64,000 nucleotides of DNA from a virus, in the IMG/VR virus record IMGVR_UViG_3300031521_000033, positions 30,210 through 94,209 of that record; one strand, written 5' to 3'. Below the pieces are notes generated by a model. It worked only from the letters and a program-made list of their open reading frames with translations, did no database searches and was not told the origin of the DNA. The translations under genes and the position numbers were made by a program. Below are positions 15,233-34,899 of the stretch, piece after piece; position 1 is the first letter of the stretch; every line of letters begins with the position of its first letter.

Positions 15233-16093
15233 TTAAAAGTCTACCTTTGGAGTTGGTCTGTGTCTTGGTTGTACTTTTGTTTGTACAGGCGGTTGTTCAG
15301 GTGCTTTAGATGGAGGTTCAACTGCCGTTGCTGGTGGTGTTGCTGCAATTGGTTGTTTGGTCGGTTCTGATTTAACTTCTGTACTCGGTGCTACTGTTGC
15401 AGACGGAATTGAATTAAATGGCAAAAATCCCTGCTCGATATAACAATTCATTTGGTCTGCACTTGCATCCATCAATGTTGTTCCTAAAATTTCAGGTACT
15501 TCATATTGTACTAAAAGTGCTTCAATATCTTCTTTTGTTACCGGTGGGTAAGGTGTTCCATTTTCATCTGAATCACATGCATATAATTTGTATGTAGTCT
15601 GCAAATCAGATCCAATACGTTCAATTTCAATTACTTTACCATATAAAGGTAAATTACGTTTTGCATATGGACTTAATTCATCTTTTACCCAACCCATACC
15701 GCGTTCAAAATACTCATACTGATTGGTATTAATATTAACTAATTTTAAGAATACCTTTGCGTGTCTATGTCGACTATCCGATTTTCCATCTTCGCCTTTA
15801 AGGTGATTATATTCTTTACAAAATGGGCAATCATCGACGTGTCTGCCGTCCTCATTTAGACAATTTACTTCTTTCCAATATTTAACACCTTTTTTGTTCT
15901 CACATGGCACTTTATGAATGAAATATGCATCAACATCATCCACTGTAGCAGATAATAATCTAACTCGTGCGGTTTCATTTGATTTTTTTAGTGAAAAATA
16001 TGGATAAAACTTAACTGGTGTACGTTCTGCACCGTCGTTTGCTTCTCTTGCTTCTTGATATGCCTGATATTGTCCAATATTAATTCTAGCCAT
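15233..16093 (-). CDS. single-stranded DNA-binding protein (gp32-like)
   Basis: Upstream of polA; FSLK..ETARVR, H..C..CPFC, ERIGS..TTY; Pro-rich tail ending DF. Confidence 0.7.
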   Translation of the reverse strand: MARINIGQYQAYQEAREANDGAERTPVKFYPYFSLKKSNETARVRLLSATVDDVDAYFIHKVPCENKKGVKYWKEVNCLNEDGRHVDDCPFCKEYNHLKGEDGKSDSRHRHAKVFLKLVNINTNQYEYFERGMGWVKDELSPYAKRNLPLYGKVIEIERIGSDLQTTYKLYACDSDENGTPYPPVTKEDIEALLVQYEVPEILGTTLMDASADQMNCYIEQGFLPFNSIPSATVAPSTEVKSEPTKQPIAATPPATAVEPPSKAPEQPPVQTKVQPRHRPTPKVDF

Positions 16094-16192
16094 TATTATT
16101 TATCCCCTTTTCTGTGCGCTGGTGCTTTCAGCCGTTTCATTCTGTTTTCTTTTGCCATTTTTGCGAATACCTGTTTGATCATTACGTATGGT

Positions 16193-16435
16193 TTATTTAC
16201 CATTGTTTTCATTTTCATCATCCTTTTTCTTTTTATCATATGAGTTAATTAATGATTTCTTAATGTAGTTAATGCAATTGCTCATCGCATCTTAATATCC
16301 GGCCCTATATGCTTTGCGATTTTTAAGATTTGGCTGATTAAAAATTTTAATCTGATGTTCTTCTAAGTCCTTAATCTGCGATTCTGCAACTAGATTTAAT
16401 GTCTTTTGTAGCTCTAATGCTTCTGCTTCTTTCAT
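16193..16435 (-). pseudogene. small ORF interrupted by in-frame TAA at 16292-16294
   Basis: MKEAEALEL...KAYRAGY*DAMSNCINYIKK... stays in frame for 81 codons. Confidence 0.45.
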
Positions 16436-16611
16436 ATGTTATTTTACCTCTTCCACTTCATCTATGCTAAATTCTGTAACAACACCTGCTCTGTCCATGA
16501 TATCATCTGCACACATACTATTAAACTTATCTTCTGCATCATCTTCTGACTCTGCATCAATTTCAACACTTTCCCATGAACTTTCCATTTCAAAATAAAC
16601 TTTAAATGTTT

Positions 16612-16905
16612 TCAATGTTTTACCACCTTTTCATATTTTTCTTTGAATTTTTCCGCTGGTACTACTGAAATATTTCCTTCATTATCTTTTACAATATAAT
16701 CATTCACTGCCACATGATATAATCCGTTACTATTTTCAAAAAATAGCTCACATGGTTCTCTTCCATCTGTACCTTTATCATAATATAATTGTCCTAATTC
16801 ATGCAGTTGAACTGCCCAATCAGGTACATAATACCCATTCTTACCACGTAGATCACCATCATACTGGAATGTACTTACAAGTTCCTCTTTACGTTTATAG
16901 ATCAT
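16612..16905 (-). CDS. conserved phage protein (GDYIV..G...F...YE type)
   Basis: VNDYIVKDNEG...KFKEKYE; AGGAGG RBS. Confidence 0.65.
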   Translation of the reverse strand: MIYKRKEELVSTFQYDGDLRGKNGYYVPDWAVQLHELGQLYYDKGTDGREPCELFFENSNGLYHVAVNDYIVKDNEGNISVVPAEKFKEKYEKVVKH

Positions 16906-16933
16906 TTTATTTCCTCCTTTTCTCTACTCTTAT

Positions 16934-16962
16934 ATAATACCATTTTAAAACTACTTTGTCAA
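16934..16962 (-). promoter_or_regulatory. sigma-A promoter TTGACA-17-TATTAT (extended -10)
   Basis: Direct sequence. Confidence 0.75.
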
Positions 16963-16968
16963 CTGTTT

Positions 16969-17982
16969 TTATGAATCTTTATATTTTAATAAAAACTCAG
17001 GATTGATTGCCTTGAAACTGATTCGATCATACCGATTATTAGCACAGGTGTAGGTAATAGGTCTAATTACAAGTCCTTCACGTTGAATATCACGTAATGC
17101 TGATTTTCCTGTTGCCATTTTCACAATACTGTCAATATCATTTGATAGTAAATACTGATCCTCTAAAATAGGCACTGTCCTTAATCTAAGTTTATCCATA
17201 AGTGATACAAATTGTTGATACTGCAGGTATTCTTGTGTGTCAATATTAAATACGTTGAAGAATCTGATGCTATACCCTTTAACATCATATTTATTTTTTT
17301 GAATGCCCTCCCCAATTAATTCCCCCTGCAGCATAATATTTGGTAATACATCATGTACACTCCATAATTTATCTTCGAAATCAAGTAATCTCGCGATATT
17401 CCAGTATAAATTATTTTCTGTTTCTTTTAAATCAATATTTCTACTGCATACTCCAAATACACCATCTTTAAGATAACATGTAAAACTTGTTCCATCTAAT
17501 TTTTCGGTAACATAACATCTTACACCCTTGTTATCATTTAATAGTCGCTGCAAATTTTGTACTCGGGTTTCATCACTTTTTGGAATCCATTCTGGAAATA
17601 ACCCTTTTGCTTCGCCTCTTAAATTAGCAGGTAATTTTGGTTCATATTTTGTTGCACCAATTATTTCAGTTACATCTTGATCTTCCATATATTCCCCCGG
17701 CGGTAGAATACTGTCTGGAAACACAATCCCTTGACTAATTTGTTTCCGAAGTCTAATTGTTCTAATCCTTTGCATATTGCCTTGGCTGTTCTTTAAAAAC
17801 TCAAACTCTGGTTTGTCTGGCATAATTGTATCTACTTCTGCATATACAACATCATCACCCACTTTGAATTGATCTTTTAATACAACTACATGCCAACCAA
17901 GAATTGTTGCCACTTCAATTTTATCTGCCCCTTCAATTGGCTGAATATCTAGTACTCTTTGAATGCTCACTAAATTTCTCAT
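16969..17982 (-). CDS. ATP-dependent RNA ligase (DRB0094/Rnl2-like with N-terminal OB module)
   Basis: IEGADKIE N-domain, TEKLDGTS motif I, QGELIG, FFNV, REGLV, SFKAI. Confidence 0.88.
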   Translation of the reverse strand: MRNLVSIQRVLDIQPIEGADKIEVATILGWHVVVLKDQFKVGDDVVYAEVDTIMPDKPEFEFLKNSQGNMQRIRTIRLRKQISQGIVFPDSILPPGEYMEDQDVTEIIGATKYEPKLPANLRGEAKGLFPEWIPKSDETRVQNLQRLLNDNKGVRCYVTEKLDGTSFTCYLKDGVFGVCSRNIDLKETENNLYWNIARLLDFEDKLWSVHDVLPNIMLQGELIGEGIQKNKYDVKGYSIRFFNVFNIDTQEYLQYQQFVSLMDKLRLRTVPILEDQYLLSNDIDSIVKMATGKSALRDIQREGLVIRPITYTCANNRYDRISFKAINPEFLLKYKDS

Positions 17983-23566: not shown

Positions 23567-23866
23567 TCATAACTGTTTTAACTGTTCTTCAACATTCTGC
23601 AATCTTCTTTTAAATATTTCTAATAATATGGGACGAATAGCTTCGTTGCATTCTTCATCAAGTTCTACAGTTGTGTGTATTTCATTAAATACGGCATGCT
23701 TATACTTGTCTACTTTAAACTCATCATATAAAACCTGACATTTTATTACATTTTTTATCTCATTACTAAGTGGTTTAATAATATCTTTCCACGCGTTAAA
23801 TTGCCTAGTCAATTCTTCTACTTTATCTACATTATTAATATCCATTTTCTCACCTAAAATCGTCAA
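23567..23866 (-). CDS. hypothetical protein
   Basis: ORF in operon. Confidence 0.55.
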   Translation of the reverse strand: MTILGEKMDINNVDKVEELTRQFNAWKDIIKPLSNEIKNVIKCQVLYDEFKVDKYKHAVFNEIHTTVELDEECNEAIRPILLEIFKRRLQNVEEQLKQL

Positions 23867-25478
23867 ATAATATTGGAATACTTTCTTGGCATTGCCCTAA
23901 CAGATCCTTTGCAATAATCTGCATATCTGGATGTGCATGCGAATCGGTTCTTAGTTTAAAGAAATGTTGCCACTCTCTTACATTGCCTGTTACAAATATT
24001 TCCGTTGCTAAACATGTTGGTAATACTGATCTTGCAATATCTGTACTCATTCCGCTTTCCAATAATTCCATATATGCATTTTCTGACTGTCTCATTGCAA
24101 ATTCCCATGCTTTATTTGCAAGATACAAGTTTAAATCCTGTGCTACATCTGAATCTTCTGGTGACTTTAATCCTGATGGTTTAATAACTGTAATCTCACT
24201 TCCAAATTTACCTTTTGAATAATTACAATATCTTGTGCTGCTCTGTGCAAATGAGAATAGTCTGTGCCTTACAATTTCATGTGAAATGCCACGATCACAC
24301 ACAATATCTGCTGAAAATACGGCATGTTCAATCATTGCACAATTTCCGCATAAAGATGGTATTTTGTTTTTACCCCTAACAATAATTATACCAGTGGATA
24401 CTTGTACACAATAAACTGGCAGGTTATCTACATTAATTATTACTACTTTACTATCTGGTTTCCGCGTGTCATTTACAATTATAGAATTATTGGCTTTTAT
24501 TCTTACTCTATAAAGTGGTTTCCAATGAATATTGTCTAGTTTAGTCACATCCCCTATATATAAAGTATATCCTGCTAAACTACCATGATTAACTAACCAC
24601 TCAGCAACATAAGAAGAAGTTGTTCCTATATTTTTGCTCCAATTAGACTTGTTACCATCAGCATTGAATAATCCCTTAATGATCGATTTAATTTTAATTG
24701 GGTCCTCCATATGTGGTAAGAATTTCTCTTTATCCCTTACATACCTACTATTAAATTCATTACCAATATTTTTCATAGTCAAAGTTATTCTGTTACCTTT
24801 TTTAATGCTATAGATAATTCCTAAATTGGTGGCTAAATTAATCAGATAATCTATTTTACGTTTCTTTTTTAAATGAAATTCTAATCTATTCCCATTCAGA
24901 CGACTACCGTCTCCTATCCAAAATCCCACTAATTCCCACCAACAATCTATATCTTCCGGTATTCTACAGGCTGTAGGTGTATAGAACTTTCGTTCACCAT
25001 TCGTTAATTTATTCCCATTATCTTGTTTATATTCAATCTCATCATTTTTAAATAATTTGTAGTTATAATTTGTTGCGTCACTAGAGATACTTCTAACTGT
25101 TCCAAACATATTATGACCTGCTGTTGTCATATAACCCAATGAACCAGAATAGTCATACATCTTACCAGTATAATTGTAACCTATCAGATTATTTGGCATT
25201 TCAAACCCATTAAATGACCCATTTTGATTAACTGTTGCAACCTTATACTGTCCTTTATAGTCACTAAATTTAATAAATCCCTGCTCAGTCAGTATCTCTG
25301 TATCTCCATCATAACAGTGTCCGCTTTTAATTAATCCTCTGACCATCTTTTCAGCACTGCCCTCTTGAATCTTATCTTCTGATTTATAACAAAGTCTTGC
25401 TGCACGTTCAATCTTTTCTAACATTTCCTTACCACTCATATCCAGTAATAACTTTGCTGACGGTTCAATAATATTCAT
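23850..25478 (-). CDS. thyX: flavin-dependent thymidylate synthase, intein-containing
   Basis: ARLCY, GH..EH, RHRLFSFAQSSTRY (RHRX7S), ARSVLP, N.REW.HF..LR...AHP. Confidence 0.95.
   Translation of the reverse strand: MNIIEPSAKLLLDMSGKEMLEKIERAARLCYKSEDKIQEGSAEKMVRGLIKSGHCYDGDTEILTEQGFIKFSDYKGQYKVATVNQNGSFNGFEMPNNLIGYNYTGKMYDYSGSLGYMTTAGHNMFGTVRSISSDATNYNYKLFKNDEIEYKQDNGNKLTNGERKFYTPTACRIPEDIDCWWELVGFWIGDGSRLNGNRLEFHLKKKRKIDYLINLATNLGIIYSIKKGNRITLTMKNIGNEFNSRYVRDKEKFLPHMEDPIKIKSIIKGLFNADGNKSNWSKNIGTTSSYVAEWLVNHGSLAGYTLYIGDVTKLDNIHWKPLYRVRIKANNSIIVNDTRKPDSKVVIINVDNLPVYCVQVSTGIIIVRGKNKIPSLCGNCAMIEHAVFSADIVCDRGISHEIVRHRLFSFAQSSTRYCNYSKGKFGSEITVIKPSGLKSPEDSDVAQDLNLYLANKAWEFAMRQSENAYMELLESGMSTDIARSVLPTCLATEIFVTGNVREWQHFFKLRTDSHAHPDMQIIAKDLLGQCQESIPILFDDFR
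24342..25316 (-). mobile_element. intein with LAGLIDADG endonuclease in ThyX (325 aa)
   Basis: Starts CYDGDTEILT after GH, ends VYCVQV...LCGN, +1 Cys; LVGFWIGDG and GLFNADG blocks. Confidence 0.92.
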
Positions 25479-25563
25479 TAATCGATACTCCCTACTAATC
25501 TATATTTTAATCTTGCATAATTATGGATGATAAAAGAATTATACATTATCATTTCTATCGACA

Positions 25564-25926
25564 TTATTTTGCCACCTCTAAATATTTAATTCCTATATTC
25601 TTTCCTCTTTTTATATACATCCATACACCTGTAATTGATCCCTCATCTATTACTGCCCTTTTTAGCATATGTTGTAGATCTGGTAAAGCCATGCTATATT
25701 CTAGGTTATTAGTATCAGTTAGTAAAGCAGTTTCTGGTGTACACCCCCTTGCGATCCATTTAATCTTCATTGTGTCTTCCCATAGTTTATTTTCTTTATA
25801 CACAGGTAATACTTGATAATCACATTCTGTATAATCTTCAAAACACTTATTGCCCCATTTACCATCTGTTGCTCTTATATACCATAATACCTTTTTATCT
25901 GCTGTCAGTGTTTGGTTTAATACCAT
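25564..25926 (-). CDS. hypothetical protein, first gene after promoter
   Basis: Start reassigned to MVLNQ after GAGGGGGG RBS. Confidence 0.65.
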   Translation of the reverse strand: MVLNQTLTADKKVLWYIRATDGKWGNKCFEDYTECDYQVLPVYKENKLWEDTMKIKWIARGCTPETALLTDTNNLEYSMALPDLQHMLKRAVIDEGSITGVWMYIKRGKNIGIKYLEVAK

Positions 25927-25953
25927 TTTCGTTCCCCCCTCATCTATAATATC

Positions 25954-25982
25954 AGTATACCACCGTCTGCAATATATGTCAA
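25954..25982 (-). promoter_or_regulatory. sigma-A promoter TTGACA-17-TATACT (extended -10)
   Basis: Direct sequence. Confidence 0.78.
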
Positions 25983-25987
25983 TATAT

Positions 25988-26024
25988 AAAAATAAAAAGA
26001 TGAAGAAATTAATCCCCATCTTTT
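25988..26024 (-). terminator. intrinsic terminator after nrd cluster
   Basis: AAAAGATGGGGA / TCTTCATCTTTT stem with T-rich tail. Confidence 0.65.
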
Positions 26025-26028
26025 AAAT

Positions 26029-26226
26029 TTATCTTACATATAATCCGCATCTGCATGCTTGCAATTCCCTCATATATCTACAAGGGCAAATAGTATCTTC
26101 ATTCCTATTTGGCAAGCAGGGACAAAATCCATCATTCTTATTTAATTTGTCAATGATCACTTGCACATGATTAATATCTGGATTTGTTTTCATATTATAT
26201 TTAGTTGCAATTGTTTCTAACGTCAA
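26029..26226 (-). CDS. ferredoxin:thioredoxin reductase catalytic-subunit-like FeS protein
   Basis: GFCPC ... ICPC ... CRCGLY, the CPC/CPC/CHC signature of FTR (His replaced by Arg). Confidence 0.8.
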   Translation of the reverse strand: MTLETIATKYNMKTNPDINHVQVIIDKLNKNDGFCPCLPNRNEDTICPCRYMRELQACRCGLYVR

Positions 26227-28019
26227 ATATAAAACCTTCTCTCAGCCTCACGCTGTCTCGCTTCACTGAAATTCTTGATTCGTTTCAAATACCCAATTAC
26301 ACGTGTTGCATAATCAATATCATCACTACCACATTTTATGCAGTATTTTTCAGTATTTGAATCAATATAACCACATTTGTTACATACACTAAATTTAACA
26401 TTTATGGTCCAATATGGTACGCCATTAACTCGGCATAGTTCAAATAGATCTTTTGCTTGCTTATATGAAATTGTCTGACCTAATGCTAAATGTAATGCTG
26501 ATCCACCATCCAAGTATTGTGTAATCTCATTACCATGTAATTTAATCTTATCTAATATACTGGTATTTTCATCCTCTGATAAATAGAAGTATGAATTATA
26601 ACAATCTCTATTTACCTTTAATCCATCTGCTTTATCCCAATTTGCATTTTTAACCCCTAATGCTTCTGCCGGAACTTGTTCACAATTGAATCTACACCCC
26701 GTTTCTTCCAGTGCTTTCTTATTATTCATTGACAATTGGTTTAAAACCTTACCTGCCCAAGTTTTGTATGTATCATTGTTTGATATTGTCATTCCTAAGT
26801 ATTCAGCCGCCTCAACAAATCCATTAATACCAATTGTCAAAAACTGCTTGTCAATATCCATAAATCCTGCCGTAAATGATGGTAACAATCCATTTTTAAT
26901 ATATTCTACATATAATGCTTTATGTGCTAATAAATACTTATGCACACGGCTCTGAATTTCATCTAAGTCAACATTTGTCTGAACAATCCTATTCATATTT
27001 AATGTAATTACCTGTGCTGAACCCGTTACAACACCACCTGCACCTAATGTATAACTAAACGTATTATCTGCTAATTTGTTCTGTAATCGGCAGCATGAAC
27101 TCAAGCTATCAACACTATCTGACATATATACAAAGAATGAATTTCCTAGGCTCATTTCACTACTGCAAAATTCCATAAACTTTGTATCAACAAATCCTGA
27201 ATCACTAGTTAACATACTAGCTGTAACTACTGGAAATGTCAATAGTTCTTTTTCGCGCTCATGCCTAAACCAGCTCATGAATACCTCTTGTAGGTCTCTT
27301 GTACTTTCTAAATTTACGGTTGTTCCATCTGGATAAAAGAATCCTTTAAACATTTCTGCCATATATGGTTTATCAAATATTGATATGTTCCAGAAGCAAG
27401 ATTGATTACCTCTTGCACTTGCGGGCTGATTTAACGCGTACACCACGCCCTGTAACTCTTGAATTACTTCGCTACGGTGCTCTGTTAGATACCGTTCCCC
27501 ATATTCCTTACGTGCAAAATAATCAAAGTAATGTAAAAATTCTACTGTTGCAATTGCTCCGGCATAATCTGATGTTACTTGATAAATAAGATTTACAAAT
27601 GATCCGCAAAAACTTTGTAAATTTTTTGGTGCTTTTGATACTCCACCAAGACATTTTGTTCCTTCTAATAAAAATGGATATAATGTAATTGAGGCACAAT
27701 ATGGTCTTAATGAACTTGCATCATGCGCATAAATTACATGTGATTCTAAATCTTTTATATACTGATTTGCCAATTCAGTCCCATACATTTCTGATATCTT
27801 ATCACACACAAGTCTCATATTAACCTGTGTCATATCAACTTTATACAATTCTGATTCAATTGTTGCAATGGTCTTATTAATTATATTAGAATTAGCATCA
27901 ATCTCACTACCTGTTGCAGCATTTGTAGCCTTAATATAGCTTGAAATGAATTGACACTTTTCATTAATTTGCTTATCTGTTAATTTATACAATTTATCCC
28001 CTAACCCCTCTGTAAACAC
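26223..28019 (-). CDS. nrdD: anaerobic (class III) ribonucleotide reductase, no ATP cone
   Basis: PYC, TFPV, SSCCRL finger loop, EQVPAE, C-terminal CxxC/CxxC and TRVIGY glycyl-radical motif. Confidence 0.95.
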   Translation of the reverse strand: MFTEGLGDKLYKLTDKQINEKCQFISSYIKATNAATGSEIDANSNIINKTIATIESELYKVDMTQVNMRLVCDKISEMYGTELANQYIKDLESHVIYAHDASSLRPYCASITLYPFLLEGTKCLGGVSKAPKNLQSFCGSFVNLIYQVTSDYAGAIATVEFLHYFDYFARKEYGERYLTEHRSEVIQELQGVVYALNQPASARGNQSCFWNISIFDKPYMAEMFKGFFYPDGTTVNLESTRDLQEVFMSWFRHEREKELLTFPVVTASMLTSDSGFVDTKFMEFCSSEMSLGNSFFVYMSDSVDSLSSCCRLQNKLADNTFSYTLGAGGVVTGSAQVITLNMNRIVQTNVDLDEIQSRVHKYLLAHKALYVEYIKNGLLPSFTAGFMDIDKQFLTIGINGFVEAAEYLGMTISNNDTYKTWAGKVLNQLSMNNKKALEETGCRFNCEQVPAEALGVKNANWDKADGLKVNRDCYNSYFYLSEDENTSILDKIKLHGNEITQYLDGGSALHLALGQTISYKQAKDLFELCRVNGVPYWTINVKFSVCNKCGYIDSNTEKYCIKCGSDDIDYATRVIGYLKRIKNFSEARQREAERRFYI

Positions 28020-28489
28020 CCTGTAATATCTTCAAGTTTACCTTCTGTAATTTTATATAGTATCTGATTTGTACCTTTTGTTGCAAGACCACCTATATCC
28101 TCTTTATAACTTCCAATTTTCAGATAATCTAAGTATGGTATATACATTTTGTGATCTTCTAATTTGTCTAATCCACTGTATAGCCCAACACAACAACATG
28201 TTTCTTTTACACTTTTTAATAACGCAACTAAAGTTGTTTCTGTAATTCCACCATTATTTGTACCACCCATAATAATAACTGCATTAGCACCTTTATATAT
28301 TTCGTTATGGACCGTATATACTATGCTTTGTAAACTTGTTTTATCCGCCACACCACACCTTAAATGGTCTGAATGACATCCTTTACAGTTATTATAACAT
28401 TGTCCCATCTCAATAAATAGTGAAATTTTGTCCGGTAATTCTGTCAGTGTTACTCCCGTTGTCACAACCGGATATGTATAATTAATCAT
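28001..28489 (-). CDS. nrdG: class III RNR activase (radical SAM)
   Basis: CYNNCKGC, MGG, LYSG, DYLKIGSY...GGL...TNQ. Confidence 0.9.
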   Translation of the reverse strand: MINYTYPVVTTGVTLTELPDKISLFIEMGQCYNNCKGCHSDHLRCGVADKTSLQSIVYTVHNEIYKGANAVIIMGGTNNGGITETTLVALLKSVKETCCCVGLYSGLDKLEDHKMYIPYLDYLKIGSYKEDIGGLATKGTNQILYKITEGKLEDITGCLQRG

Positions 28490-28890
28490 ACCCTTAATAT
28501 CTTTCCATAATCTTTACATAATGCACATTGACTTATATTCTTATGAAATTCTTTCTTGCACGGTAATGAATCCAATAAGCATTCTCTACTTTTGCATTCT
28601 CTAATATACTCATAGCTAAACTTCAAACTTTCTTTATCAATTTTATACGATTCCGCTTTTGCATTATTTTTCATTTCAATACAAATATAATTTGACTTTG
28701 GATTATTGCCTTTAATAATCTCATTTACTGAATTATCTACATCAATTAATTCTAATTCAACTAATTTTGTAAATACTTTTGGTACTTCTTTTTCATAACT
28801 GAATACATAACACATTTTACCTGTGTTTATATTTTTATATATTTCCATGTTATTCCTTTCTGTTAATGCTTGCTTCTTCACTAAATCCAT
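28486..28890 (-). CDS. hypothetical protein
   Basis: ORF in operon; likely start MEIYK. Confidence 0.5.
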   Translation of the reverse strand: MDLVKKQALTERNNMEIYKNINTGKMCYVFSYEKEVPKVFTKLVELELIDVDNSVNEIIKGNNPKSNYICIEMKNNAKAESYKIDKESLKFSYEYIRECKSRECLLDSLPCKKEFHKNISQCALCKDYGKILRV

Positions 28891-29161
28891 CTGGGTAACG
28901 TTTTTTTAATTTATCAATATTTATCTGAGCAATCTCATTAAAGTCAATCCCTAATATTTCACATGTTAGTGCGGCATACCAGCAACAATCACCAATTTCT
29001 TTCTTGATTGCATCTACATCTAATTTATGTCCGTGATATAAATGCTTTTTAATTATATCTGCAACTTCTCCTGCTTCCCCCGTTAAGCCTAAACCTGCGC
29101 ATGCAAGATCTGCTTTACCTGCTGTTCTCATTGCTAATTTTTGATATTCGTTAAAATCCAT
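28850..29161 (-). CDS. MazG-like nucleotide pyrophosphohydrolase
   Basis: FNEYQ, GLTGEAGEVAD..KK, EIGD..WY, N..KL..RYP. Confidence 0.9.
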   Translation of the reverse strand: MDFNEYQKLAMRTAGKADLACAGLGLTGEAGEVADIIKKHLYHGHKLDVDAIKKEIGDCCWYAALTCEILGIDFNEIAQINIDKLKKRYPDGFSEEASINRKE

Positions 29162-29164
29162 ATA

Positions 29165-29377
29165 CTATTTTACCACCCTCGCTGAGTCCATTTTGTTTGC
29201 ATACTGTTTCAATATTTCTTTTGCATTATCTCCGGCAGTCAACCCCATAATCTTAATTCTGCCAGTCTGTCTATTTTCTCTAATATATGGGTTTGTAAAG
29301 TATACTGTCCGGTCTGAAATAAACACCCTGTTGTTTGTTTCACTGTCAAATACTTCATCTTCACCAATAATAACCAT
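29165..29377 (-). CDS. hypothetical protein
   Basis: ORF in operon. Confidence 0.55.
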   Translation of the reverse strand: MVIIGEDEVFDSETNNRVFISDRTVYFTNPYIRENRQTGRIKIMGLTAGDNAKEILKQYANKMDSARVVK

Positions 29378-29739
29378 TAAAATTCCTCATTTCTTTTCAT
29401 TTCTGATAATGCAACTTCTTTGGACTTCTTTGTTGATCTCTTTACTACATTATTATCAATTTTCATATCCTCAAATGCAACTGCTCTCCAACCATGTAAT
29501 ATTGCCTTATTTACTTGTAATACCATTTGTTCCTCTGTTGGTAACTTCTTTAATAGATCTAAATTCTTCTGCCATGATATCTTACTTGGCATGTTACGTT
29601 GTTCTTTTCTGTTTTTCAAATATTCATCTAATGCTGATTGAAGAGCTAAACTTTCTGGAAATGCTACTTGATTCATATCATATAATGATAAAACCTTATA
29701 ATACTTTTTTATATTGGCTTCCTTACCAAATAGTGCCAT
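29377..29739 (-). CDS. possible replication initiator/replisome-organizer C-terminal-like protein
   Basis: Y...RK...L..L..L....NKAILHGW pattern; start reassigned to MALFG after GAGGAGG. Confidence 0.45.
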   Translation of the reverse strand: MALFGKEANIKKYYKVLSLYDMNQVAFPESLALQSALDEYLKNRKEQRNMPSKISWQKNLDLLKKLPTEEQMVLQVNKAILHGWRAVAFEDMKIDNNVVKRSTKKSKEVALSEMKRNEEF

Positions 29740-29800: not shown

Positions 29801-30221
29801 AAATTTTATACGATTTACTCCTAATTCCATCTAATTCCAAATTAATATTATTTAATTCTGATTGTAGAGTTTGAATTTTATCCATTACTGCCATTTGGTT
29901 TGATTTTACACAATCATAATTGCTTAATATATCCTTTAGATAAAGTATTTCAATATCTTCTTTTGGTTTAAGTGGAACTACTACAACCCACTCAGCACAA
30001 AAAGTATATGAATCCACCGACAAAAACCTATCCGTTGCTTTCAAACTAAATCTTTTCAGACCATTTGTGTGCCAAACTTCATCTATTTTAAAGGTATGTC
30101 CGCAATATTCAAACATTTCATCTATCCATTTTAAGGCCAATGGATCATCATCATTGTCTTCCACTATTTCTGCCATTAACGATCTTGATTTAACAATTAC
30201 ATAATCTCCCACTTCATACAT
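29793..30221 (-). CDS. hypothetical protein (KOW/SH3-like N-terminus plus coiled coil)
   Basis: YEVGDYV.VK start; heptad C-terminus. Confidence 0.55.
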   Translation of the reverse strand: MYEVGDYVIVKSRSLMAEIVEDNDDDPLALKWIDEMFEYCGHTFKIDEVWHTNGLKRFSLKATDRFLSVDSYTFCAEWVVVVPLKPKEDIEILYLKDILSNYDCVKSNQMAVMDKIQTLQSELNNINLELDGIRSKSYKILS

Positions 30222-30529
30222 TATTTTTCATCCCCAATTGGTACATAATCAATCACGGTAATTGTTTTCTTAGTTTCAACTTTTTTAATTTCAATCGGCT
30301 GATCACAATAAAATGATTCACATTGTTCTGTTAATCCTTGACTCCATATCAAACTAAATAATCTTCCATCACATTCAATAATTGATTCCACATCTTGTGT
30401 CCATCTGTGTTGCTCACCATCAATATCCTCCATTGAATAACTTTGAAAATCCTCTAGTTCATTATCTGTTAAATCAACTCCACTGTCTATTTTTTTAATA
30501 TAACCATCTAATTCTTTAAAATCACTCAC
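30221..30529 (-). CDS. hypothetical protein
   Basis: ORF in operon. Confidence 0.6.
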   Translation of the reverse strand: MSDFKELDGYIKKIDSGVDLTDNELEDFQSYSMEDIDGEQHRWTQDVESIIECDGRLFSLIWSQGLTEQCESFYCDQPIEIKKVETKKTITVIDYVPIGDEK

Positions 30530-30750
30530 TTTTCTGCCTCTCCTTCTGGTGGATTATTTACCATTTCAACTGCATCATTCACCTGTTCATCAACTGTAAG
30601 ATTTGTTCTTTCCCACAGTTTTGCTTTTTCCTCTTCTACATTATCCTTTGCGGTGAGGCTTATTTCTTCCTGTGCTTCAAATGTAAACCATTTCTTGCCA
30701 ATTTCTAAACTCATACGGCTGCATGCTCGTAATAATGTTGTTTTTGCCAT
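30526..30750 (-). CDS. hypothetical protein
   Basis: ORF with RBS. Confidence 0.6.
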   Translation of the reverse strand: MAKTTLLRACSRMSLEIGKKWFTFEAQEEISLTAKDNVEEEKAKLWERTNLTVDEQVNDAVEMVNNPPEGEAEK

Positions 30751-33225: not shown

Positions 33226-34899
33226 CTAACTTAATAAATATTTTAATACTTCTTTACTGTTTATATCATGTTCTTTATCAACTATTGTATCTGACATATA
33301 TTTCTTCTTTAATACTAATTCTTGTATTCTCTCATCAATTGAATTTCTGCATACTAGTGAAATAATATAACAAGTTGATTTAGTTCCTATTCTATGTATT
33401 CTATCCGCTGCTTGACTATAACTTGCATATGTATATGGTAAATCTAAAAATATTATGGTGCTTGCTGCTGTCAATGTTAACCCAACTCCCATACAATCGG
33501 TAGTTCCAATTAATACCTTACATTTTGAATCAGTCATAAACCGATTTTTTTGCTCCATTCTGTTTTTTACTTTACCCGTAATTACTGCGGGGTTCCATCT
33601 TTTAAATCGTCTTTCTGCAATATCTGTAATTGTGGTCCAGTTTGAAACAATAATTACTTTTTCACCATTTGCAACCAATTCTTCTATTATTTCCTCTGCT
33701 CTATCAAACTTTGGTGCTTCCTTAATTGTTGATGATAATATTGATGTATCTGCTGTAACCTGTCTTAATCTAATTAGCATTGTAAGTGGATTTGGATTTA
33801 GTTCTATTTTATCTATATTTGCCATTACCTCATCCATAACATCTGCATATAACTTCTTTTGCGGACCTGTCATTTCCACATATTCTGTTTTCTCAATCCT
33901 AGGCGGTAAATTTAATACCTTGGATTTGAGTCGTCTTAACTGCACTGAATCTAACTTTTTCTGCAGTAGATCCATATTCTTATATCTAATTACAGAATGC
34001 CCACCGTAACCACCCCAATCTGCATACTCTCTTTTAAAGTCCCCATAATTTCCTGTCTCTGCCCCAACCCACTTTAATATCAGGTATAATGATAATGGGG
34101 AGTTCATTAATGGTGTTCCTGTTACTGGTACTGCATACATTGGTGATAATCTAAGTAATGCCCTTGCTGATAACGATGTTGGACTTGATAACTTGTGTAT
34201 CTCATCAAATATTACCATACCAATTATATCTTTGTCAATCATTTTCTTTAACTGTTCCACAAGCGGTTTATTTTGTAGCGTATCGACATTTGTGATTAAA
34301 AAGTATTTATCTGCAATCTTTAAATCATCTAATTTATCCTTATTGCCCTTGATATTCCATATGCCTTTTCGGTTCTTCCTTGATCCAAGTACCGTTGATT
34401 TAATGCCTGTATGATCTTTTATTTCATTATACCAGTTCCACATCAATGAGCCTATACCACATATTATTAGGCAATGTTTAAATTCTTGCTGCCTTGCTAA
34501 CGCTATCGCGATCAGCTGTAGACTTTTTCCCAAACCGGGTTGATCTGCCAGTAAAAACTTTGCATGTGTCATCCCATGATTAAACCCATCAACCTGATAA
34601 TCATATAACTTGGTTTTTATCTCACTTGGCATTGCTGCTAATACTTCTTTAACTACTTTTACTTTTTTCTTGCGCGATTTTCTCTCTTTCCCAACGATCT
34701 TAAATTCAATATTTGGCAATTCATCTTGTAACCACTTTAATTTACTAGCATCAATTTCCCATTCTTTTTTAATGGTATTATAATATCTATTCTGTATTCT
34801 TCGGATTACCTCTACAATTTTGATATTATATGGGAATAATAGGTAAACACTTTGAATTGATTCTAGTTTAACTGGTTTACCATATTTTGCTGTAATCAT
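33226..34899 (-). CDS. SNF2-family helicase with N-terminal HARP-like domain
   Basis: FPY....I..I..R.Y....K.W N-domain; DQPGLGKS, DEIH, TGTP..N, G.GLTL, QA.DRIHRIG. Confidence 0.92.
   Translation of the reverse strand: MITAKYGKPVKLESIQSVYLLFPYNIKIVEVIRRIQNRYYNTIKKEWEIDASKLKWLQDELPNIEFKIVGKERKSRKKKVKVVKEVLAAMPSEIKTKLYDYQVDGFNHGMTHAKFLLADQPGLGKSLQLIAIALARQQEFKHCLIICGIGSLMWNWYNEIKDHTGIKSTVLGSRKNRKGIWNIKGNKDKLDDLKIADKYFLITNVDTLQNKPLVEQLKKMIDKDIIGMVIFDEIHKLSSPTSLSARALLRLSPMYAVPVTGTPLMNSPLSLYLILKWVGAETGNYGDFKREYADWGGYGGHSVIRYKNMDLLQKKLDSVQLRRLKSKVLNLPPRIEKTEYVEMTGPQKKLYADVMDEVMANIDKIELNPNPLTMLIRLRQVTADTSILSSTIKEAPKFDRAEEIIEELVANGEKVIIVSNWTTITDIAERRFKRWNPAVITGKVKNRMEQKNRFMTDSKCKVLIGTTDCMGVGLTLTAASTIIFLDLPYTYASYSQAADRIHRIGTKSTCYIISLVCRNSIDERIQELVLKKKYMSDTIVDKEHDINSKEVLKYLLS

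Follow-up and report, generated by a model that had tools for sequence, protein, structure and literature searches.

Within a 64,000-nucleotide window of viral DNA (the whole stretch analysed here, positions 30,210 to 94,209 of the IMG/VR record IMGVR_UViG_3300031521_000033), a gene for a 65-amino-acid protein overlaps the end of nrdD, the gene of a class III ribonucleotide reductase (RNR). Our analysis places this protein in the family of the ferredoxin:thioredoxin reductase (FTR) catalytic subunit and of ferredoxin:disulfide reductase (FDR). This miniature FTR, called mini-FTR in the following, probably lets low-potential host electrons pay for the deoxyribonucleoside triphosphates (dNTPs) of the phage. 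We consider it reasonably probable that reduced host ferredoxin (or another low-potential carrier) feeds mini-FTR, which would then pass the electrons to a disulfide in a redoxin of the host, a small protein akin to thioredoxin, glutaredoxin or NrdH, and that the reduced redoxin would serve the two active-site cysteines of the phage NrdD, an enzyme of the thiol type. The reductase would be regenerated in this way after each turnover without formate or NADPH. Cluster binding, ferredoxin as the donor, a redoxin as the intermediate and the effect on turnover are the steps of this chain that we infer.

By sequence and predicted fold, mini-FTR is a core-only member of the FTR-catalytic/FDR family. 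As a single sequence it matches PF02943 only marginally (22.6 bits against a gathering score of 22, E 1.2e-4); it is the sole PF02943 match in the genome and also matches phrog_38239. The profile of its family aligns all six cysteines with those of Methanosarcina acetivorans FDR (4TPU, E 1.6e-7) and of the FTR catalytic subunit (FTRc) of Synechocystis (1DJ7, E 8.6e-7), and it also finds 7PWE, a fusion of glutaredoxin (Grx) and FDR from Desulfotalea psychrophila (E 2.1e-6). Relatives at 55-61% identity have the same CPC-9-CPC-8-CRC arrangement, and in an alignment of 38 sequences C35, C37, C47, C49, C58 and C60 together with two prolines and one arginine are the only invariant positions. The AlphaFold2 model has a pLDDT of 95.5, and the 11 PDB matches listed by Foldseek are all FTRc, FDR or Grx-FDR proteins (TM 0.65-0.77, probability 1.00), with E-values of only 6e-3 to 3e-2 for such a short chain. 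By homology, the protein should hold one [4Fe-4S] cluster beside a disulfide C37-C60; following 1DJ7, we take C35, C47, C49 and C58 to be the cluster ligands and C37-C60 to be the redox-active pair.

Besides this common core, mini-FTR departs from FTR in several respects: an arginine takes the place of the histidine of the CHC motif, the spacer is shorter, the terminal helices are absent, there is no rubredoxin domain and the chain ends 5 residues past the third cysteine motif. The FTR variable subunit (PF02941) had no match in the complete phage genome, while a control was matched in Synechococcus. A canonical plant or cyanobacterial FTR was therefore rejected as identity of the protein, given that both the histidine and the variable subunit are missing. 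Within the family, which comprises 1783 clusters (50% identity, E <= 1e-3) and most of whose best 150 are 55-100 amino acids long, the middle residue of the third cysteine motif varies (R, K, H, Y, C, I).

The three genes lie co-directionally in a long minus-strand array: nrdG (28001-28489, minus strand), encoding a radical-SAM activase of 162 amino acids with a CxxxCxxC motif, nrdD (26223-28019, minus strand), encoding 598 amino acids from a GTG start, and the mini-FTR gene (26029-26226, minus strand) with a TTG start. The 3' end of nrdG overlaps the GTG start of nrdD by 19 nt, and the last two bases of the mini-FTR TTG overlap the nrdD stop codon (ATTTGA); this TTG is preceded, at a distance of 7 nt, by AGAAGG, which resembles a Shine-Dalgarno site. 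An intrinsic terminator-like hairpin with a 12-bp stem and a T-run (26024-25995, minus strand) closes the unit and is the sole terminator-like site in the region 25400-29400 (fold z-score -2.15). With the TTGA overlap and the terminator behind it, the mini-FTR gene is predicted to share a single transcription unit with nrdG and nrdD. A preliminary description of the region had placed the nrdG, nrdD and CPC/CPC/CRC genes in this order and followed by a terminator, which open reading frames (ORFs), family matches and the hairpin bear out; it had also described an ATGA overlap, of which the overlap itself stands and the ATGA has to be corrected to TTGA. The first ATG of the mini-FTR ORF would yield 54 amino acids, and the public gene call (P0001, 54 amino acids) starts there. 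We dropped this start and prefer the TTG, since residues 1-11 align with homologous residues in relatives and are modelled as a confident helix.

On the side of the reductase, the residues of the phage NrdD give it the NrdD2 signature, i.e. that of the thiol-using Thermotoga/Neisseria type. The protein (PF13597, E 5e-100) reaches 789.7 bits with TIGR02827 against a trusted cutoff of 568.3, and its best PDB match is the T. maritima NrdD (4COI, E 1e-67). When both are aligned, SSCCRL of the phage stands opposite ASCCRL, EQVPAE opposite EQVPAE and RVIGY opposite RIVGY; in a profile alignment, T4 NrdD carries GCR and YSTPAE at the SSCCRL and EQVPAE positions. A Pfam search detected no ATP cone in the phage NrdD. 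Eight aligned NrdDs all retain C309-C310, E447-x2-P-A-E and the glycyl-radical motif RVIGY without change, the four C-terminal cysteines of the Zn ribbon are conserved, and the paired activase gene lies directly upstream; its product matches TIGR02826 (nrdG3, E 1.1e-24) with 87 bits, below the cutoff of 151.7, and phrog_626. In the classes of Wei et al., NrdD2 combines a third cysteine with a glutamate and NrdD3 has the third cysteine without the glutamate (PMC4493059). The vicinal cysteines, which provide the third one, and the glutamate of the phage enzyme therefore make up the NrdD2 signature, and we refer to it as NrdD2/NrdDh, Thermotoga-like. Of this type, the Neisseria bacilliformis NrdD uses thioredoxin, and the T. 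maritima NrdD requires a protein factor >10 kDa and not formate (PMC4493059). The same motifs, the comparison with T4 (EQVPAE versus YSTPAE), the missing ATP cone and an assignment to the thioredoxin-dependent N. bacilliformis/Thermotoga type had been part of the preliminary description, and the alignments with T. maritima and T4, the signature and the TIGR02827 score all agree with it.

Support for a role of mini-FTR in ribonucleotide reduction comes from its gene neighbourhoods. We gathered ~150 loci encoding mini-FTR relatives and scored the neighbouring genes. The linkage is recurrent, although not obligate for NrdD (crAss001-like phages have the gene and no NrdD): at least five distinct orders of thiol-type RNR genes include the mini-FTR gene. 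These are i) nrdG-nrdD-FTR in the phage under study, ii) nrdD-FTR-nrdG with overlapping starts and stops in locus L151, whose NrdD is 41% identical and has an N-terminal extension that we read as a putative ATP cone, iii) CPNC redoxin-nrdD-nrdG-FTR in the phage L008 (NrdD 27% identical), of which L139 is a rearranged version, iv) nrdD-Grx-nrdG-FTR amid cellular genes in 21 species-level metagenome-assembled genomes (MAGs) of Clostridia/Eubacteriales, on contigs of up to 766 kb, and v) nrdG-nrdD-polA-(thyX)-FTR-ligase in ~100 loci of ~40-kb PolA phages, some contigs being counted twice. In the Clostridia operons, nrdD shows a weak ATP-cone match and the Grx-like protein matches PF00462 with an E-value of 7e-11. 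The vicinal cysteines and ExxPAE are kept in all eight aligned NrdDs from arrangements i, iii, iv and v, and both motifs can be seen by eye in the L151 NrdD. Moreover, in the 182-kb phage L148 (3604-6669) a gap of 3 nt separates the gene of a class II (B12-type) RNR that has an ATP cone from a downstream ORF of 238 amino acids with an N-terminal FTR core of the CCC type, whose other ~170 residues have no Pfam match; a dUTPase gene is next. At 75% identity, 16 of 24 mini-FTR clusters have NrdD within 6 kb. Taken from this recurrence in independent gene orders, a functional tie of mini-FTR to RNR is well supported.

Some of these loci show peculiarities of their own. In L139 (1905-7116), an intein interrupts nrdD exactly at the catalytic CC motif (RSM / C...HN / CCRL), and the glycyl-radical C-terminal piece is a separate ORF of 59 amino acids 2.8 kb downstream; between the pieces come an ORF of 460 amino acids on the reverse strand, which matches no Pfam family, an XRE-like ORF and the genes for mini-FTR and thymidylate kinase. 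In L008 (2470-4461), nrdD is found in two ORFs (123 and 487 amino acids) with a gap of 156 nt, for which an intron, a frameshift and a faulty assembly are all conceivable. A 467,580-bp bacterial contig of a Phascolarctobacterium MAG (L074, 331199-343393) also contains the nrdD-polA-thyX-FTR module known from the ~40-kb phages. This context suggests that a relative is integrated there or that binning or assembly produced a chimera, and it points tentatively to Negativicutes as hosts of the PolA phage group.

Regarding the partners of mini-FTR, the phage itself offers none. Neither thioredoxin nor glutaredoxin (PF00085, PF00462) had a match in the complete 94,209-bp genome, and the same holds for flavodoxin, Fer4_7 and Fer2. 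A hidden Markov model of the operon-linked Grx-like proteins found no match in the phage genome either (best E 0.15), and a scan of its small ORFs for a thioredoxin-like CxxC protein returned only unrelated cysteine-rich ORFs. The absence of thioredoxin and NrdH, which had been pointed out for the window, extends to the entire genome. Since there is no redoxin or ferredoxin gene, the donor and any redoxin must be supplied by the host.

Which protein takes over the electrons from mini-FTR is indicated by natural fusions. The mini-FTR domain is found fused to thioredoxin (P0052) as well as to NrdG, DHFR, ThyX, thymidine kinase and dUTPase (P0025, P0028, P0033, P0016, P0043, P0041; L152:494-1228). 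The fusion with DHFR is represented by at least 15 clusters at 90% identity, including a 244-amino-acid protein of a 380-kb phage with direct terminal repeats. Together with the Grx/FDR fusion 7PWE, the thioredoxin fusion points to a redoxin as the usual acceptor, and the fusions with other proteins suggest a physical membership in a dNTP-synthesis module or complex of the phage. For fusions with NrdD itself, our search returned only two clusters (P0039, P0206), in both of which the FTR takes the place of the glycyl-radical domain. As this domain is gone and the genes are possibly broken, we did not count them as Rosetta-stone evidence.

The main rival of the host-redoxin route is a direct one, in which mini-FTR docks on NrdD and reduces the active-site disulfide itself without a thioredoxin-like carrier. 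The lack of a thioredoxin, Grx or NrdH-like gene in the phage genome would be in line with this, and no such redoxin occurs in the retrieved parts of L151 or the PolA phages. Likewise, the tight TTGA coupling and the two-sided overlaps in L151 would fit subunits of one complex, and fusions of mini-FTR with NrdD (rare) and NrdG (commoner) do occur. On the other hand, a dedicated redoxin is kept among the same partners in 21/21 cellular operons and in phage L008; wherever a redoxin gene is present in linked loci, it lies in the operon. Furthermore, natural fusions link the FTR/FDR domain to thioredoxin or Grx, the two NrdD fusions may be broken genes, and thioredoxins are always available from hosts. 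We therefore rank the direct chain below the redoxin route, because cells and the one phage lineage with a full set keep the redoxin gene; a host redoxin as intermediate seems likelier, and direct reduction of NrdD, which the preliminary description had raised as a possibility for its minimal FTR-like protein, is unlikely in our view. The protein did turn out to be a true FTRc/FDR homologue, and its direct action on NrdD is the weaker branch. More doubtful still is an extended version, in which host ferredoxin would feed the 65-residue Fe-S reductase and this would reduce NrdD directly, as a portable, redoxin-free two-protein chain that would act on class II RNRs as well and be part of the dNTP-synthesis complexes of phages. 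If true, this would be the smallest known RNR reductant system and would account for the fusions with DHFR, ThyX, thymidine kinase and dUTPase.

Several observations weigh against the chain through a host redoxin to NrdD. Two of its three partners must come from the host, as the phage has genes for neither a redoxin nor a ferredoxin. The Pfam score of mini-FTR is barely above the cutoff, and the residue replaced by arginine is the CHC histidine, which is important in FTR. Common descent connects many of the linked phage loci, leaving few independent events; therefore, the five arrangements are a fairer count than the clusters. Moreover, disulfide chemistry leaves the fusions with DHFR, ThyX, thymidine kinase and dUTPase unexplained. 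Finally, some copies are found away from RNR genes. The crAss001-like phages, which have no NrdD, carry a 65-amino-acid copy of the CHC type in a tRNA array far from their RNR genes, and Bacteroidales and Riflebacteria have copies in unrelated chromosomal contexts that are not near RNR genes. The authors of the crAss001 study called gp5 a 'putative ferredoxin-thioredoxin reductase' and an auxiliary metabolic gene unrelated to replication (PMC6235969).

Such distant copies and the size of the family (1783 clusters) would suit a general thiol-redox auxiliary, i.e. a ferredoxin-fed upkeep of host thioredoxins for many targets, with the adjacency to nrdD reflecting no more than the bookkeeping of modules. 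This conflicts with the linkage to RNR in at least five gene orders, including an insertion between nrdD and nrdG, and with the overlap of mini-FTR with nrdD in a unit closed by a terminator. Three more near-complete phage genomes with a mini-FTR gene are also without NrdD; a thiol-dependent class I/II RNR (PF02867) is encoded in 5/5 tested NrdD-less phage genomes carrying mini-FTR, which we regard as supportive since RNRs are common in large phages. Altogether, we give a general auxiliary function a small chance.

Within the family, the third-motif residue tracks context: CHC copies (crAss-like phages, Bacteroidales, a jumbo phage) never lie <6 kb from nrdD, and CRC, CKC, CCC, CYC and CIC copies are mostly within 6 kb of it. 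The exceptions are three CRC copies of Bacteroidales, the CCC copies of Riflebacteria and L148, and some truncated loci. In Paludibacteraceae MAGs (Bacteroidales; L091:5902-7083), mini-FTR is encoded directly upstream of a thioredoxin-dependent PAPS reductase (PF01507).

A third possibility is that the Fe-S protein takes the role of flavodoxin and reduces the radical-SAM cluster of NrdG instead of regenerating NrdD. A cluster of NrdG(Fer4_12)-FTR fusions with 21 members and the overlap of the mini-FTR gene with the nrdG start in L151 speak for it. Nevertheless, such a role is very unlikely, because mini-FTR also accompanies a class II RNR, an enzyme without an activase, and occurs in NrdD-less phages, and because both disulfide cysteines are invariant in the family. 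In addition, all checked linked NrdDs are of the thiol type, and clusters of the FTR type are not simply low-potential carriers. Least probable of all is a non-catalytic cysteine-rich (zinc or Fe-S) adaptor that tethers the dNTP-synthesis enzymes of the phage, as the fusions with DHFR, ThyX, thymidine kinase and dUTPase and the position of the gene after thyX in PolA phages might suggest, given that the exact cluster-plus-disulfide cysteine pattern and the fold of FTR/FDR are conserved, that thioredoxin and Grx are partners elsewhere and that the fusions may simply join neighbours within one module.

The source of the window is the complete genome of a gut-type phage, with direct terminal repeats and 32.8% G+C. 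It codes for tail, baseplate and tape-measure proteins, and its replication module includes a DNA polymerase, helicases and a primase. The array described here includes MazG (28850-29161, minus strand), followed by an ORF of 134 amino acids on the same strand between MazG and nrdG. Downstream of the terminator, a sigma-70-like, promoter-like site (TTGACA-17-TATACT with TG; 25982-25954, minus strand) matches 11 of 12 consensus positions; it is the best such site in the region, identified by its consensus match only, and would serve the next unit, consisting of a small ORF and thyX (23850-25478, minus strand). The thyX gene is interrupted by an insertion of ~323 amino acids between residues 54 and 378, which opens with CYDGDTEIL and matches LAGLIDADG_3 weakly, short of the cutoff (E 7e-4). 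The ThyX of a relative aligns only to residues 1-54 and 378-541 of the product, and the insertion probably represents an intein containing a homing endonuclease. The genome also contains small ORFs of 59-71 amino acids with a helical N-terminus followed by CxxC-rich motifs (e.g. 15617-17453, 26663-26878, 30522-30713, 34131-34310). They may represent a paralogous family and are not thioredoxin-like.

To our knowledge, the re-reduction of thiol-type class III RNRs in strict anaerobes has been worked out for just two or three enzymes, and we know of a ferredoxin-driven RNR route documented for one methanogen only. Our literature search returned no paper describing, for phages or bacteria, a linkage between mini-FTR and RNR genes. 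If the proposed chain via mini-FTR and a host redoxin holds true, many gut phages and uncultured Clostridia would draw on the pool of ferredoxin, with pyruvate:ferredoxin oxidoreductase as one possible source of its electrons, and not on formate or NADPH for the synthesis of DNA precursors, and the phages would bring their own coupling enzyme. In addition, the 65-amino-acid protein would be a minimal model of FTR chemistry that works without a partner subunit or the supposedly important histidine.

Compared with known systems, mini-FTR shares the CPC...CPC...CxC core, the fold and PF02943 with the catalytic subunit of FTR from Synechocystis (1DJ7/2PU9) and chloroplasts (7BZK/7C2B). In contrast to these, its inter-CPC spacer is shorter by 7 residues, it has no terminal helices, arginine replaces histidine, no gene for a variable subunit accompanies it and the organism is not photosynthetic. 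Of the PDB sequences, the family profile matches FDR of M. acetivorans (4TPU) best; the six cysteines align, its third motif is also without histidine (CYC) and the Foldseek TM is 0.66. However, 4TPU has 173 amino acids with a C-terminal rubredoxin domain, whereas the phage protein lacks this domain and has an arginine in the third motif. The crAss001 gp5 is likewise 65 amino acids long and ~42% identical, and it lacks the same 5 residues ahead of the first CPC, but it differs in its CHC motif, its location in a tRNA array and a phage background without NrdD and with a PF02867 RNR. The D. psychrophila protein 7PWE has the same FTR/FDR core fold (TM 0.74) and a Grx-type redoxin as natural partner, but is a cellular fusion protein of 196 amino acids, for which we know of no link to RNR.

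For the reductase, the NrdDs of T. maritima and N. bacilliformis (4COI, 4U3E) are comparable in their SCCR motif, EQVPAE, Zn ribbon and glycyl-radical motif. Unlike the phage enzyme in the proposed chain, they draw on NADPH, thioredoxin reductase and thioredoxin, and we are not aware of an FTR-like partner described for them. In Methanosarcina barkeri, electrons for the class III RNR reportedly pass from ferredoxin via FDR and an NrdH-like redoxin to NrdD. The title of Wei et al. (2015; Biochemistry 54:7019), as cited in PMC9176816, states that class III RNR receives electrons from the M. barkeri FDR, and FDR reduces a Methanosarcina thioredoxin (PMC6262447). Here, too, a class III RNR cluster includes an Fe-S disulfide reductase of the FTRc family, NrdD has an extra active-site cysteine and low-potential electrons take the place of formate. 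The differences are that our locus belongs to a phage, with related operons in Clostridia and not in methanogens, that its reductase is a single domain of 65 amino acids, and that the phage NrdD keeps Glu447 (NrdD2-like, not NrdD3) with no NrdH-like gene in the phage. Since the glutamate is present, NrdH is absent and the reductase has a single domain, we rejected membership in the NrdD3-FDR-NrdH system proper. However, the phage locus probably works like this FDR-NrdH-NrdD system of M. barkeri, which is the closest one known.

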